NCBI RefSeq assembly: GCF_044324875.1
Contig: NZ_CP172185.1
From: Escherichia coli
Lineage (GTDB): Bacteria > Pseudomonadota > Gammaproteobacteria > Enterobacterales > Enterobacteriaceae
DNA length: 64,000 nucleotides
Direction: 5' to 3' (one strand)
Below are positions 3,137-8,618 of this stretch, one piece after another; position 1 is the stretch's first letter; each line of letters opens with the position of its first letter. The position numbers were made by a program, and so were the translations under genes. The notes beneath the pieces are model-generated. The model saw nothing but the letters and a program-made list of their open reading frames with translations, ran no database searches and was not told the origin of the DNA.

Positions 3137-3208
3137 AACAAACGCACTTTGTCTGTCCCTGCCCCGTTTTGCCATCATGAGACAAACGATCATCACGAGG
3201 GCCCGACA

Positions 3209-4045
3209 ATGCCTGAACAGAAAAAAACATCCCGTAAAACATTCCGCGTGGCCGTTTCCGGTCCCACCGCAGACGGTCGCGAAATCAGCGCCGCAGATTT
3301 GCGCGCGGCGGCCAGTAACTTCAACCCTGAGATTTACGGCGCACGCGTGAACGTGGAGCACTGGCTTTCACCGGTTCCGTCCAGTGAATTTTCCGCCATG
3401 GGTGATGTGACGGCACTGAGCACAGAAGAAATCACCGAAGGTCCGCTGGTCGGTCGTACTGCGCTGTATGCGAAAATCGAACCCACCGACCGCATGAAAA
3501 ATCTGGTCTCCCGGGGTAAGAAAATTTACTCCAGTATTGAGCTGGCACGAAATTTCACCCCTACGGGCACCCCGTATCTTATTGGCCTTGCCATGACAGA
3601 CACCCCGGCAAGCATCGGCACGGAGCGTCTTCAGTTCGCCCTGCAGCAGCGCCGTTCGGTCATGACCTTCAATAATCAGCAGACGGAAGCACCGATGTTC
3701 TCTGACGCCATTGAGGCTGAAGTGATCGAACTGACGGAGCGCCGCAGCGAGGAAGGTGCGCAGTGGTTTAACCGCGTGATGAACATGATTGGGCGAGGAC
3801 GCAGGGCTGACGACACCCGGTTCTCCCGCATTCATGACGCCGTTGAGGGGATAGCCTCATCGCATGCCGACCTTCTCGACCGCTTCAGTGCACTGGAATC
3901 GCGCCATCAGGCAGACAGACAGAAAGTCGCCACCCTGTCCACTGAGCTGGCAGAGCTGAAAAACAGACTGCGCGGACTGGACGCTGATCAGCAAAGTCGT
4001 TTTACGGCAACCGGCGGGCAGTCCAGACAACTGGCTGACTACTGA
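3209..4045 (+). CDS. O: Capsid scaffolding protein, P2 gpO-like
   Basis: Track ORF 3068-4045; start moved to ATG 3209 (MPEQKKTSRKTFRVAVSGPTADGREISAADL...) by comparison with recalled P2 O N-terminus. Confidence 0.8.
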   Translation: MPEQKKTSRKTFRVAVSGPTADGREISAADLRAAASNFNPEIYGARVNVEHWLSPVPSSEFSAMGDVTALSTEEITEGPLVGRTALYAKIEPTDRMKNLVSRGKKIYSSIELARNFTPTGTPYLIGLAMTDTPASIGTERLQFALQQRRSVMTFNNQQTEAPMFSDAIEAEVIELTERRSEEGAQWFNRVMNMIGRGRRADDTRFSRIHDAVEGIASSHADLLDRFSALESRHQADRQKVATLSTELAELKNRLRGLDADQQSRFTATGGQSRQLADY

Positions 4046-4073
4046 CAGAAATAACCACAAGAGGTGATAACCG

Positions 4074-5213
4074 ATGAATCTGATCATGAGCGATGCCGCG
4101 CGGGCCGAGCTTTTTGCTTACCAGGCACAACAGGCGGAGATGAATAACATCACGATATCTGCGCTCTCCTCCCGCTTTTCGGTACAGCCGGCAGTGCAGC
4201 AGAGATTTGAAAACGCATCAAAGGAAAGCCATGATTTTCTTCAGAAAGCCAACAGCATTGGTGTGACAGAGCAGAAAGGTGAAAAGGTACTCCTGGACAC
4301 CACCGGGCCGGTTGCGCGCACGAACAGCAGTTATGACGGTACAAATCGTCGTAACCCGCTGAATGTGGTGGACATGAAAGCGCGACGCTATGAGTGCGAG
4401 CAGGTGAACTACGACACCTTCATCTCCTACCCTCAGCTTGACATGTGGGCCGGACACCCTGACTTCCAGCTGCGTGTGAGTCGCCAGATTGCCAGACAGG
4501 TGGCACTTGATCGCATCATGACAGGTTTTAACGGTACGCACCATGCGGAAGTCTCGGATATAAAAAAACACCCGCGACTTGAGGACGTCAATAAGGGGTG
4601 GCTGCAGGATATCAGGGACCAGGCCCCGCAACGCGTCATGAAAGACGTGATGCTGACTGCGCGCAATATGGACAATTCGGTGGCATACACAGGCAGATAC
4701 GCCAATCCCGATGCACTGGTCCAGGATGCACGCTCATCCCTGCTTGACGAATGGCACAAGGACGCAGACGACCTCGTTGTCATCATGGGGCGAAACCTCT
4801 TTAACTCCCTGCGCCTGCCGGTCCTGAACAGTATCAGCATGCAGAATGCGAATGCCGAACTGCTTGCCGGACAGCTCATTGTGTCAACGCGGACCATTGG
4901 CGGCCTTGATGTGTACCTTGCGCCATTTTTCCCGGCTCAGTCAATGCTCATCACCTCATTCAGCAACCTGTCGGTTTACTGGCAGAAGGGGTCCATGCGT
5001 CGTCTCATGAAGGATGAGCCCGAATACAACCGTATCGCCATCTATCAGTCCGTTAACGACTGCTATGTGGTTGAGGACCATGGTAAGTGCGCACTGATTG
5101 AGAATATCAGCTTTGCCGAATATGACCATGACGCGCCGGACTGGTACCGGGACGCCACAAAAGCACTGTCAGCGCAGGCTGAAGACAGGGATGCAGGGGA
5201 AGAGGAGGATTAA
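4074..5213 (+). CDS. N: Major capsid protein, P2 gpN-like
   Basis: 379-aa ORF; motifs RRYECEQVNYD, RVMKDV, LSVYWQKGSMRR parallel recalled P2 N. Confidence 0.85.
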   Translation: MNLIMSDAARAELFAYQAQQAEMNNITISALSSRFSVQPAVQQRFENASKESHDFLQKANSIGVTEQKGEKVLLDTTGPVARTNSSYDGTNRRNPLNVVDMKARRYECEQVNYDTFISYPQLDMWAGHPDFQLRVSRQIARQVALDRIMTGFNGTHHAEVSDIKKHPRLEDVNKGWLQDIRDQAPQRVMKDVMLTARNMDNSVAYTGRYANPDALVQDARSSLLDEWHKDADDLVVIMGRNLFNSLRLPVLNSISMQNANAELLAGQLIVSTRTIGGLDVYLAPFFPAQSMLITSFSNLSVYWQKGSMRRLMKDEPEYNRIAIYQSVNDCYVVEDHGKCALIENISFAEYDHDAPDWYRDATKALSAQAEDRDAGEEED

Positions 5214-6595: not shown

Positions 6596-6792
6596 TGAAA
6601 GTGAGGGCACTTCAGGGGGACACCGTCGATTTACTCTGTTTCCGGCACTACGGCACCACGCAGGGGGTGACCGCACAGGTACTTGATGCCAATCCCGGGC
6701 TCTGCCGCCAGGTAATTCTGGAAGCGGGACAGGAGGTGGAGATGCCGGAGCCGGAAAGGAAACAGCAACGCGAAAAGGTAAAGCTATGGTGA
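6595..6792 (+). CDS. X: Small tail protein, P2 gpX-like (65 aa)
   Basis: MKVRALQGDTVDLLCFRHYGTTQG...; ATG overlaps L stop (tgATG); position as P2 X. Confidence 0.65.
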   Translation: MKVRALQGDTVDLLCFRHYGTTQGVTAQVLDANPGLCRQVILEAGQEVEMPEPERKQQREKVKLW

Positions 6793-7076
6793 CGGGATTT
6801 TTTCAGCGCGTCAGTGACTGGATCACCTTCTGGGCGTCAGTGACGGCAACAACCATTGGTGTTATGACCATCAGCGAAAAAATTGCGCTGGCCGGGCTGC
6901 TTCTGGGGTCACTTTCCGCCATCCATGCCTGGCGCCACCGCAGGCGTACGGAGCAGGCAATGAAGCGCCGCAATGACCTTATCGCCCGCATCCTGGCACG
7001 TTCAGAAAACCGCGAGCTTCACGACGGTGAGAGACGGGCACTGGACAGCGTGAGACAGGACGGAGAAGAGCGGTGA
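6786..7076 (+). CDS. Holin (two predicted TM helices then highly charged C-tail; pinholin-like)
   Basis: WITFWASVTATTIGVMTI and IALAGLLLGSLSAIHAW hydrophobic segments followed by RHRRRTEQAMKRRND...; immediately upstream of the endolysin. Confidence 0.6.
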   Translation: MVTGFFQRVSDWITFWASVTATTIGVMTISEKIALAGLLLGSLSAIHAWRHRRRTEQAMKRRNDLIARILARSENRELHDGERRALDSVRQDGEER

Positions 7077-7618
7077 AACTGCCGGTAAAACGTTATGCGG
7101 TGGCGGCCATTGTGGCGCTGGGCGTCTCCATGGCACCCGGTGAACTGAGAACCTCACGGGAAGCACAGATAAAAATCGCCACCCGGGAAGAGTGCCGGGC
7201 GACACCGTACCGTGATATTGCAGGAGTAATGACCGTGGGATGTGGTTCAACAGGGGGCGTGGAGAACCGGGTTTACGGAGAAAAGGAGGTGGCCCGCCGC
7301 TGGGTGAATGACCTGCGGCACGCGGAAAACTGTATCAACCAGAACTTCAGCGGTGCCGCCATGCCCCAGTCCGCCTTTGAGGCGATGACCGACGCGGCGT
7401 TCAACGTCGGCTGTACCGGCCTGATGTGGTACCGGGACAGGAGCGGCAACCGGCAGCGCACCACCATCTGGAAGCACGCACAGGCGCACCGCTGGGTGGC
7501 GATGTGCGGGAGACTGACCGATTTTGTCAACAGTGGCGGACGCCGCTCACAGGGGCTGGTTAACCGCCGGGAGGAGTTCAGACAGTGGTGTCTTCGCGAC
7601 ACGGGAGGCAGCACATGA
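7073..7618 (+). CDS. SAR (signal-anchor-release) endolysin, T4-lysozyme-like muramidase
   Basis: GTG start overlapping holin stop; N-terminal weakly hydrophobic segment AVAAIVALGVSMAPG then E..TPYRD..GV.TVG.G.T catalytic-region pattern as recalled for phage P21-type endolysins. Confidence 0.8.
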   Translation: MKLPVKRYAVAAIVALGVSMAPGELRTSREAQIKIATREECRATPYRDIAGVMTVGCGSTGGVENRVYGEKEVARRWVNDLRHAENCINQNFSGAAMPQSAFEAMTDAAFNVGCTGLMWYRDRSGNRQRTTIWKHAQAHRWVAMCGRLTDFVNSGGRRSQGLVNRREEFRQWCLRDTGGST

Positions 7619-8022
7619 GACCGGTTTACGCCGTGATTGTTGCCCTCATGGTGACCGCCCTGACGGCAGTGGCCATGTGGCAGTCATACCGGCTGGGGCG
7701 TGCCGGTGAGGCACGTGACGCCGCAGAGCAGCAGCTGGGCGAATACAGCCGGGCGCTGCGTGAGTCCTCCGCCGTTATCAGCGATGCCTCCGCCGTACTG
7801 CATGAGGTGATGACGCAGCGACAGAAAAGGGCACAGGAAGGAGAAGTCAGACGTGAACAGCTTCGCGAAATTGCTGCGACGGATGAGTGCGCCGGCACTC
7901 TTCCTGACCACCGTTTTACTGACCGGCTGCGCGAACACACGGAACGCGCCACTGCCCGCGCCCTCCTTCCGGTTCATTCCGGCGGGACTGACGACGGGAA
8001 CACGGCCCCCGCCCTTCCCTGA
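7615..8022 (+). CDS. i-spanin (Rz / P2 LysB-like), N-terminal TM anchor
   Basis: ATG 7615 overlaps endolysin stop (ATGA); MRPVYAVIVALMVTALTAVAMW TM then charged coiled-coil-like region. Confidence 0.65.
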   Translation: MRPVYAVIVALMVTALTAVAMWQSYRLGRAGEARDAAEQQLGEYSRALRESSAVISDASAVLHEVMTQRQKRAQEGEVRREQLREIAATDECAGTLPDHRFTDRLREHTERATARALLPVHSGGTDDGNTAPALP

Positions 8023-8167
8023 ACACCCCACATGGGGAAATATCGGGATATGGAGCGACAGCCTCCTGGATGCACTGGAAACCTGCAACGCAGACAAACA
8101 GGCCATTGAGGCGCTGGAGCGCCGGAGACTCAACCGACAGAACGGAGGGGGACATGCTGAAAAGTAA
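7853..8167 (+). CDS. o-spanin lipoprotein (Rz1 / P2 LysC-like), in +1 frame overlapping and extending past the i-spanin gene
   Basis: Signal peptide MNSFAKLLRRMSAPALFLTTVLLTGC with lipobox LTGC; proline-rich mature part; start could alternatively be the internal Met at 7883. Confidence 0.6.
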   Translation: MNSFAKLLRRMSAPALFLTTVLLTGCANTRNAPLPAPSFRFIPAGLTTGTRPPPFPEHPTWGNIGIWSDSLLDALETCNADKQAIEALERRRLNRQNGGGHAEK

Positions 8168-8618
8168 ATCCCTGAGCACACACATGAGTACAGCGTGCCG
8201 GTGGTGCAGGGCCAACCCGGAAAAGTTCACCGTGTTCATTGAACGTGGCGGGATAGAGACCACCGGCGAGACGCCGACGTTCGTGTACAACTACCGGCTC
8301 GTGATGTTCGTCATGGACTACACGGGCGACCTGGACGACCTGACGCTTCCACTGATTGTCTGGCTGGCAGAGAACCAGCCGCAGTTGCTGCTTAATCCTG
8401 AGCGCAACGGCGATATTCAGTTCACGGCGGCCATTAACGACGACGACAGTGCGGACGTGCTTTTTGAGCTGCCGCTGCGCGAGCGCGTGCGCGTCACCCG
8501 CAGGGATGACGGCACCCTCACAACGGAACATCTGCCGGAGCCGAAATCGCGCATCCCGCAGGACGGCGACTGGTCGCACATTCTGGAGGATGTGACGTGG
8601 GAGGTGACCGGTGACTGA
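8154..8618 (+). CDS. R: Tail completion protein, P2 gpR-like
   Basis: Start set at ATG 8154 (MLKSKSL...); VMFVMDYTGDLDDLTLPLIVWLAENQP resembles recalled P2 R. Confidence 0.75.
   Translation: MLKSKSLSTHMSTACRWCRANPEKFTVFIERGGIETTGETPTFVYNYRLVMFVMDYTGDLDDLTLPLIVWLAENQPQLLLNPERNGDIQFTAAINDDDSADVLFELPLRERVRVTRRDDGTLTTEHLPEPKSRIPQDGDWSHILEDVTWEVTGD

Follow-up and report, generated by a model that had tools for sequence, protein, structure and literature searches.

A probable HP1/P1-type holin and SAR endolysin with overlapped spanins in a P2-like Escherichia coli prophage

How would a P2-like prophage open its host cell if some of its lysis genes are not those of P2? The question is raised by four genes in a 64,000-nucleotide (nt) stretch of Escherichia coli DNA (the window, to whose positions all coordinates refer), which lie on the plus strand between tail gene X and tail-completion gene R. 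A first-pass annotation had described them as a lysis cassette that differs from that of phage P2 and is made up of a pinholin-like holin, a signal-anchor-release (SAR) endolysin and a pair of overlapping spanins. As judged from sequence comparison, this functional reading is right for all four genes, which together make up the host-lysis module of a P2-like (Peduoviridae) E. coli prophage. The explanation that best accounts for the data, and that we consider very probable, is an HP1/P1-type holin and SAR endolysin combined with overlapped spanins in a P2-like prophage. The predicted genes and the features on which the argument depends are as follows.

6786–7076, plus strand: holin of 96 amino acids (aa), ATG start, with a match to phrog_1350
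7073–7618, plus strand: SAR endolysin of 181 aa, GTG start, a GH24/T4-lysozyme-type muramidase of the P1 Lyz family with a match to PF00959
7094–7141, plus strand: SAR domain of the endolysin (residues 8–23), from composition, conservation and the helix in the AlphaFold2 (AF2) model
7187–7234, plus strand: catalytic triad region of the endolysin, E39-x8-D48-x5-T54, with Cys41 and Cys57 on the flanks, located by regular expression
7615–8022, plus strand: i-spanin of 135 aa, ATG start, in an open reading frame (ORF) that opens at GTG 7585, with a match to phrog_214
7853–8167, plus strand: o-spanin, GTG start, a 104-aa precursor with a 79-aa mature form and a match to PF23793 (LysC)
7919–7930, plus strand: lipobox L-T-G-C of the o-spanin (Cys26), by direct reading of the sequence

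Each of the four ORFs has a strong match to a family (holin, endolysin, i-spanin and o-spanin, respectively), which makes it unlikely that any of them is a chance reading frame. The ORFs, overlaps and motifs previously reported are all present, the wording on the charge of the holin tail (below) aside. Stop and start codons overlap where the tail-X stop meets the holin start (ATGGTGA, 6786–6792), where the holin stop meets the endolysin start (GTGA, 7073–7076) and where the endolysin stop meets the i-spanin start (ATGA, 7615–7618), all by direct reading. Moreover, a Shine-Dalgarno motif is found 6–9 nt upstream of all four starts: AAGG at 6775–6778 for the holin, GGAG at 7062–7065 for the endolysin (7 nt before GTG 7073), GGGAGG at 7603–7608 for the i-spanin (6 nt before ATG 7615) and GGAG at 7840–7843 for the o-spanin. 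The cassette genes are predicted to be translationally coupled via their overlapping stop and start codons.

The endolysin matches PF00959 (E = 1.4e-21) and the endolysin family phrog_7 (E = 9e-48). Its best match among solved structures is phage P1 Lyz (1XJT, E = 6.9e-36), in an alignment that starts at residue 12, inside the hydrophobic segment. An AF2 model built from 31 homologues (predicted local distance difference test score (pLDDT) 86, predicted template-modelling score 0.84) likewise finds the active form of P1 Lyz (1XJT) as its best match in the Protein Data Bank, with a template-modelling (TM) score of 0.84 over 179 columns, N-terminal helix included; the inactive form (1XJU) is a poorer match, with a TM score of 0.64. 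In this model the helix spanning residues 10–20 (pLDDT 86–94) is packed on the enzyme body, like the released SAR helix in active P1 Lyz. The triad E39-x8-D48-x5-T54 aligns with E42/C51/T57 of P1 Lyz, and E39 and T54 are invariant across the family. The spacing E-8aa-D/C-5aa-T is the consensus cited for the enzymes of P1, 21, phiKMV, ERA103 and T4 (PMC4640515).

The N terminus of this protein, MKLPVKR-YAVAAIVALGVSMAPG-E, carries the basic residues K2, K6 and R7, followed by 16 uncharged residues (8–23), 8 of which are Gly, Ala or Ser. Residues 1–19 are conserved in 44 full-length homologues, most of them around 180 aa long and most with an ATG at the equivalent position, and Pro22 is invariant in 31 of 31 sequences. 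The start at GTG 7073 is favoured over the alternative ATG 7130 (Met20) because it has both a Shine-Dalgarno motif and the overlap with the holin stop, because residues 1–19 are conserved, because tblastn alignments to phiT5282H and to Klebsiella phages begin at residue 1, and because the phiT5282H endolysin has an ATG at the codon equivalent to GTG 7073. No Shine-Dalgarno motif is present upstream of ATG 7130. The protein is predicted to be a SAR endolysin and a close homologue of P1 Lyz, with an anchor that would stay uncleaved and with Sec export and release by depolarization suggested by analogy. The first-pass description of this gene, namely a GTG start overlapping the holin stop, an N-terminal SAR segment and T4-lysozyme motifs, agrees with the GTGA at 7073–7076, the 16 uncharged residues, the PF00959 match and the triad.

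The 96-aa product of the gene immediately upstream matches the 'holin' family phrog_1350 (E = 7e-23). It contains two hydrophobic segments, at residues ~12–29 and ~33–49, that are separated by a three-residue loop (S-E-K), and an AF2 model (pLDDT 72) places helices at residues 3–26, 29–75 and 80–94. Both predicted transmembrane domains (TMDs) and the basic juxtamembrane segment are conserved in the family alignment. The tail had been called very basic, and here the earlier description holds for the two membrane segments only. The 47 residues from 50 to 96 include 14 K/R and 10 D/E, which makes the tail highly charged with a net charge of only +4, the proximal half contributing +7 and the distal half −3. 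A dual-start motif is absent from the gene. The protein is best described as a class II holin and a candidate pinholin: it has the two TMDs (N-in/C-in by predicted topology) and the adjoining SAR endolysin gene that are expected of a pinholin.

The relationships of this holin lie with phage HP1. In pairwise BLAST, 72 aa of the window holin align with HP1 Hol at 31% identity (E = 5e-6), and PF16080, the family of the HP1 holin (TCDB 1.E.7), scores 22.5 bits (E = 1.2e-4), below its gathering cut-off of 28.8 bits. The same model matches 6 of 11 members of the holin family at E ≤ 0.01, the best at 3e-6. The window holin thus appears to be a distant relative of the HP1 holin rather than a curated member of PF16080. 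Homologues are few: 13 were found by a word-index search, and phmmer over 1.84 billion representatives returned 9 cluster representatives, which suggests a family that is small and narrow at single-sequence sensitivity. Its hosts are E. coli, Klebsiella, Enterobacter and Edwardsiella, and its named members are mostly called 'phage tail protein'. This name has probably spread from neighbouring gene X, because one member (P0013) is a fusion that carries PF05489. A Foldseek search of BFVD with the holin model gave nothing at E ≤ 0.001.

Kinship with the S21 pinholin was considered and rejected: the window holin has no match to the S21 family PF04971, a model to which S21 itself scores E = 8.6e-36, and hhalign of the holin family against S21 returned a probability of 1.4%. 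A profile search for pinholin and SAR endolysin families, which had been proposed as a check, gives no match to PF04971 for the holin and the PF00959 match for the endolysin. The term 'pinholin-like' remains reasonable in view of the two predicted TMDs, the SAR partner and the ~31% identity to HP1 Hol, but membership of the S21 family does not. If TMD1 is a SAR-like helix that leaves the membrane, its composition hardly sets it apart: Gly, Ala, Ser or Thr occupy 9 of 17 positions in TMD1 and 8 of 17 in TMD2, and the hydrophobicity sums of the two are equal on a scale that does not discriminate known SAR domains. In view of the distant homology to HP1 Hol and the SAR partner, pinholin behaviour is the most likely mode of action of the window holin.

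The two remaining genes (7615–8167) would encode the spanins. The i-spanin matches phrog_214, 'Rz-like spanin' (E = 3.5e-26), and weakly TIGR03495 (phage_LysB). It has the N-terminal TMD and helical periplasmic domain expected of such a protein, and the TMD (residues 4–22) is the most hydrophobic segment in the cassette. Its closest relative is the P88 i-spanin (43% identity). The o-spanin gene lies in the +1 frame relative to that of the i-spanin, has 170 nt in common with it and runs 145 nt beyond its stop; the last 14 nt of the o-spanin gene are shared with the beginning of tail gene R (8154). Its product matches PF23793, 'Rz1-like lysis system protein LysC' (E = 2.1e-13, 50.4 bits against a cut-off of 27), and falls with P2 LysC in phrog_456; the equivalent gene is named lysC in RefSeq. 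The lipobox L-T-G-C26 is followed by Ala at +2, with no Asp, which points to sorting of the o-spanin to the outer membrane, and the mature 79-aa protein contains 9 prolines. A basic n-region is present in the signal peptide, MNSFAKLLRRMSAPALFLTTVLLTG, only if GTG 7853 is the start codon. The closest relative of the o-spanin is an unannotated ORF of P88 (67% identity), which aligns from residue 1. The o-spanin is predicted to be a LysC-family putative outer-membrane lipoprotein, and the two proteins have the features of an overlapped two-component spanin. The LTGC lipobox, the +1-frame start inside the i-spanin gene and the 145-nt extension past its end, all of which had been noted before, can be read in the sequence. 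NCBIfam offered nothing useful for any of the four lysis proteins.

From homology, we infer the following course of lysis at every step. The 96-aa holin would build up in the inner membrane, where its TMDs would form a two-helix hairpin and its charged C-terminal helix would lie on the cytoplasmic side. Meanwhile the endolysin would be exported by Sec, and its weakly hydrophobic, uncleaved SAR domain would keep the inactive enzyme in the membrane. At a programmed time the holin would trigger and collapse the membrane potential, by homology to HP1 most likely via small lesions of the pinholin type. The SAR domain would then exit the bilayer and, like that of active P1 Lyz, refold against the body of the enzyme, switching on the E39/D48/T54 muramidase. 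Once peptidoglycan has been degraded, the inner-membrane i-spanin and the lipoprotein o-spanin would destroy the outer membrane.

Several observations weigh against this explanation. The closest experimentally studied relative of the holin is HP1 Hol, a weak link given the 31% identity and the PF16080 score below the cut-off, and the HP1 study reports an unusual topology for its holin (PMC7312051). A canonical large-hole holin can also serve a SAR endolysin, as P1 shows (PMC6116005). For the endolysin itself, the SAR domain has a short hydrophobic core of ~13 helical residues before A-P-G, so that a cleaved signal peptide is conceivable, and RefSeq/PGAP places the start at Met20 and leaves the SAR domain out. 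Hydrophobicity sums (Hessa scale, Kyte–Doolittle mean, 17- and 19-residue windows) failed to separate SAR domains from stable TMDs; indeed, two bona fide SAR domains, those of P1 Lyz and R21, came out more hydrophobic than the window holin TMDs. The first alternative that such points suggest is that the window holin is a canonical large-hole holin that frees the SAR endolysin by depolarization, like P1 LydA for Lyz. The closest solved relative of the endolysin is indeed the enzyme of a phage that uses a canonical holin (PMC6116005), the protein shows no similarity to PF04971, its TMDs are alike in composition so that TMD1 is not obviously SAR-like as in S21, and its 96 aa, which include a 47-residue cytoplasmic domain, exceed the length of the known pinholins (60–78 aa). 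However, the only characterized relative, HP1 Hol, kills cells without lysis and without release of β-galactosidase (PMC7312051), in most phages that have a SAR endolysin the encoded partner is a pinholin (PMC9239132), and the holin and SAR endolysin move together as one module. We regard a large-hole holin as rather unlikely.

A different possibility, which we judge improbable, is that the endolysin is not tethered at all, being either a soluble lysozyme that starts at Met20 (ATG 7130) and needs a large-hole holin, or a protein with a cleaved Sec signal peptide like Lys44 of fOg44. It would account for the PGAP product of 162 aa from Met20 and for the n-region and h-region layout of the 16-residue stretch, in which S19 and A21 occupy positions −3 and −1 of a possible cleavage site; T4 RI, long held to be a SAR protein, is also described in PMC8385771 as having proved to carry a cleavable signal peptide. 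This is countered by the conservation of residues 1–19 in the 44 homologues, most with an ATG at the equivalent position, and by the GGAG 7 nt before GTG 7073, where the GTGA overlap suggests coupling, compared with the lack of a Shine-Dalgarno motif before ATG 7130. Proline at +1 blocks signal peptidase I (the specificity of LepB), and the only small-x-small, A-x-A-like site in the endolysin has the invariant Pro22 at +1. The N-terminal helix, moreover, has its homologue in the SAR helix that P1 Lyz retains and is modelled as packed on the body, and an uncharged stretch of 16 residues is likewise found in HP1 Lys, whose behaviour is that of a SAR endolysin (PMC7312051). Slightly less probable still is that the 96-aa protein is not a holin, but a tail protein or a releasin- or antiholin-like regulator acting on the basic N terminus of the SAR endolysin, like Mu gp25. 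NCBI sources do name the family 'phage tail protein', no NCBIfam model matches the protein, and its long charged cytoplasmic domain together with K2, K6 and R7 of the endolysin recalls the dependence of Mu gp22 K6/K7 on gp25 (PMC9239132). Yet the family matches of the protein are to holins (phrog_1350 and the HP1 holin family), it sits in the canonical holin slot directly upstream of the endolysin gene and overlaps its start, and the cassette ORFs include no other holin candidate. A releasin (DUF2730) was rejected on topology, with two predicted TMDs compared with the single N-terminal TMD of releasins, and on the absence of a Pfam match to DUF2730. The combination of an HP1/P1-type holin, a SAR endolysin and overlapped spanins remains our preferred explanation.

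Within that explanation, one point concerns how the endolysin would be controlled. An alignment of 44 full-length endolysin homologues, together with the window enzyme and with phiT5282H and P1 Lyz as references, was examined at the following codons of the window gene.

7094–7096, plus strand: endolysin codon 8, located by alignment
7193–7195, plus strand: endolysin codon 41, located by alignment
7214–7216, plus strand: endolysin codon 48, located by alignment
7241–7243, plus strand: endolysin codon 57, located by alignment

In 28 of the 44 homologues, as in phiT5282H and P1 Lyz, the SAR domain contains a Cys, positions 41 and 48 (the latter catalytic) are Cys, and position 57 is Ile, Met or Leu. 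The other 16 have Tyr8, Cys41, Asp48 and Cys57, the state also found in the window enzyme, and no mixed or intermediate state at these four sites occurs among the 44 sequences. In a neighbour-joining tree calculated with the switch sites excluded, the 16 sequences (70–99% identical) form one clade nested within the P1 type. This pattern indicates that the three-site change was a single evolutionary switch and not repeated covariation.

In P1 Lyz, the SAR residue Cys13 attacks the Cys44–Cys51 bond, and activation follows by disulfide isomerization (Xu et al. 2005, as cited in PMC6116005). The cysteines that define this subtype (C13, C44 and C51) correspond in the window enzyme to Tyr8, Cys41 and Asp48, so that only the equivalent of C44 is kept. 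Because Asp48 stands in place of Cys and the SAR domain has no Cys, the window endolysin cannot use the thiol-disulfide isomerization of P1. The SAR endolysin R21 is activated by a conformational change, and activation of the window enzyme is presumably of this type. Cys41 and Cys57 are consecutive cysteines, which makes a disulfide between them plausible; the bond is a conjecture, and the strand register is ambiguous from the DSSP string. We tentatively suggest, as a possibility that is somewhat doubtful, that the sub-clade arose within P1 Lyz-type enzymes by a coordinated change (SAR Cys to Tyr8, catalytic Cys to Asp48 and Ile/Met/Leu to Cys57) with Cys41 kept, and that it represents a natural switch between modes of SAR control if the Cys41–Cys57 bond is permanent and activation is conformational. 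If this is true, the clade provides ready-made reciprocal mutants for relating the two control modes of SAR endolysins. The three-site cysteine change is a side observation that was new to us.

Where the components come from is suggested by the identities of the predicted proteins to those of P88 and phiT5282H, given here in that order.

L: 78% and 55%
X: 77% and 72%
Holin: no match and 52%
Endolysin: no match and 68%
i-spanin: 43% and 29%
o-spanin: 67% and 38%
R: 71% and 64%

The exchanged unit appears to be the holin–endolysin pair (6786–7618), because only these two proteins lack a P88 match and the flanks and the spanins are closest to P88. The pair would constitute a two-gene module swapped into a P88/Xuanwuvirus-like backbone in which the spanins are of the backbone type. 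The mosaic joints lie exactly at gene boundaries, with 6786–7618 foreign and 7615–8167 backbone-type. At least three cassette types (P2, P88 and HP1-like) occur in the X-to-R slot of Peduoviridae, and dissimilar lysis modules among P2-like phages had been noted earlier (PMC3091744). The locus shows Peduoviridae exchanging holin and SAR endolysin as a two-gene unit and the spanins staying with the backbone.

The genes around the cassette are P2-type morphogenetic genes as identified with Pfam and PHROGs: small terminase M, head completion L, tail X, and tail completion R and S. A promoter and terminator scan found no sigma-70-like promoter and no plus-strand terminator within the cassette, which fits a location inside a long late operon. 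Terminator-like hits on the minus strand of the scanned region number 2, compared with 2.9 expected by chance; an antisense terminator-like hairpin at 7177–7204 on the minus strand (a 10-bp stem, then a T-run), inside the endolysin gene, is probably meaningless. Of 5,426 complete E. coli genomes, 25 carry a chromosomal prophage that matches the 1.8-kb region at 95% identity or more; the best match reaches 99.6%. No close sequenced phage was found, the best matches for structural genes being P88-like Xuanwuvirus at ~77% nucleotide identity. In the related E. coli TUM9803 prophage, toxin–antitoxin-like cargo adjoins the portal gene on its upstream side (82–1574 of the compared stretch, outside the window). 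It consists of a TumE-family protein, an HVO_A0114-family DNA-binding protein and a RelE-family toxin with a helix-turn-helix partner.

The near-identical E. coli TUM9803 prophage (NZ_CP135671.1; 9287–10668 of the compared stretch corresponds to 6786–8167 of the window) shows how such a cassette stands in RefSeq/PGAP. There the holin is named 'phage tail protein', the i-spanin is 'hypothetical' and lysC is given a CTG start within the signal peptide, 51 nt beyond the GTG that has the good Shine-Dalgarno motif. Cloning the endolysin from the database entry for expression or antimicrobial use would give a truncated protein, and the main practical value of the present analysis is the correction of database annotation. 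Unannotated overlapped o-spanin ORFs with lipoboxes were also seen in P88 (1821–2135 of the compared stretch, found by tblastn at 67% identity), in phiT5282H (3776–4144 of the compared stretch, lipobox SVTAC) and in HP1 (7917–8183 of the compared stretch, lipobox LLAC). The HP1 study did not recognize the HP1 spanin pair (PMC7312051).

How far, then, does the cassette differ from that of P2? The claim of a difference holds for the holin, for the endolysin and for the absence of lysA, which had gone unremarked, but not for the spanins. P2 Y is a class I holin with three TMDs (PF04550/phrog_175). P2 K, which had been described as another type of enzyme, is indeed a soluble protein of the lambda-R type: it matches 1AM7 (E = 4.6e-44), has no PF00959 match, no hydrophobic N terminus or signal anchor, and no BLAST similarity to the window endolysin. 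The antiholin-like lysA of P2 is absent from the window cassette, which has no room for it because the endolysin stop overlaps the i-spanin start. P2 LysB belongs to phrog_89, whereas the window i-spanin belongs to phrog_214, and BLAST found no similarity of the cassette to any P2 lysis protein (Y, K, LysA, LysB or LysC). Overlapping spanins, by contrast, had been wrongly counted as a difference from P2. The P2 lysB/lysC genes are the textbook pair and archetype of the overlapped layout, which occurs more often than any other (in 228 of 528 two-component systems; PMC6139136), and P2 lysC starts in the +1 frame within lysB (PMC3091744). The X-to-R slot is the same, P2 lysC likewise runs 145 nt past lysB and overlaps R, and the window o-spanin falls in the P2 LysC families PF23793 and phrog_456. 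The identical 145-nt extension of P2 lysC (3203–3493 of the compared P2 stretch) and the window gene, found without BLAST-level similarity, probably reflects coincidence or a constraint from the shared R junction.

Among more closely related phages, P88 (Xuanwuvirus) is closest for L, X, both spanins and R, but carries another holin/antiholin and a peptidase M15 endolysin in the same slot. In Enterobacter phage phiT5282H (Novemvirus) and Klebsiella phage ST16-OXA48phi5.4 (Reipivirus), the X-to-R slot is filled by four genes in the arrangement seen in the window. As the closest sequenced phages they share 52% and 51% identity, respectively, in the holin and 68% and 66% in the endolysin. They differ in their spanins, which are 29–41% identical to those of the window, and in that the o-spanin and holin are partly unannotated or misnamed; the phiT5282H endolysin in addition has both a SAR Cys and a catalytic Cys, which places it in the P1 subtype. 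A P2-like Klebsiella element has also been reported to encode a P1 Lyz-like SAR endolysin (PMC9902359). Phage 21 resembles the window cassette in having a two-TMD holin and a SAR T4-type lysozyme with E-x8-D-x5-T and no SAR Cys, and the R21 structure (3HDE) matches the window endolysin model with a TM score of 0.62. However, R21 is only ~24% identical to the window endolysin, S21-68 and the window holin have no sequence relationship, the dual-start antiholin of S21 is absent, and the lambdoid spanins are embedded whereas those of the window are overlapped.

The systems that the cassette most resembles are those of P1 and HP1. P1 Lyz shares 45–50% sequence identity with the window endolysin, the equivalent of Cys44 (Cys41) and four later cysteines being conserved. 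It differs in that the equivalents of its Cys13 and Cys51 are Tyr8 and Asp48 in the window enzyme, which has a new Cys57, in that the P1 SAR domain is ~8 residues longer and in that Lyz is paired with the canonical holin LydA (PMC6116005). HP1 is itself a P2-like (Peduoviridae) phage, in which the genes run in the order holin, SAR endolysin, i-spanin (orf25/LysB-like) and overlapped o-spanin ORF. Its small holin gene lacks a dual start and runs into the beginning of the endolysin gene. Its Lys, a member of the P1 Lyz family that is 40% identical to the window endolysin, has a 16-residue uncharged N-terminal stretch (PMC7312051). HP1 Hol is 78 aa long compared with 96 aa in the window, HP1 Lys keeps the catalytic Cys (E47-x8-C56-x5-T62) and the SAR Cys in contrast to the Asp48 and Cys-free SAR domain of the window, the HP1 cassette lies downstream of the tail tube gene and not between X and R, and its spanins have no detectable similarity to the window spanins. 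HP1 Hol is needed for phage release, and its authors describe it as a pinholin with a Sec-dependent SAR endolysin (PMC7312051). The window cassette, as an E. coli-native relative of this pinholin/SAR system, offers easy genetics on HP1-family holins. With a lysis pathway assumed from these homologues, it would add no new kind of lysis component: the cassette is an ordinary member of the lysis type already studied in HP1 and P1, a pinholin–SAR system with LysB/LysC-type spanins.

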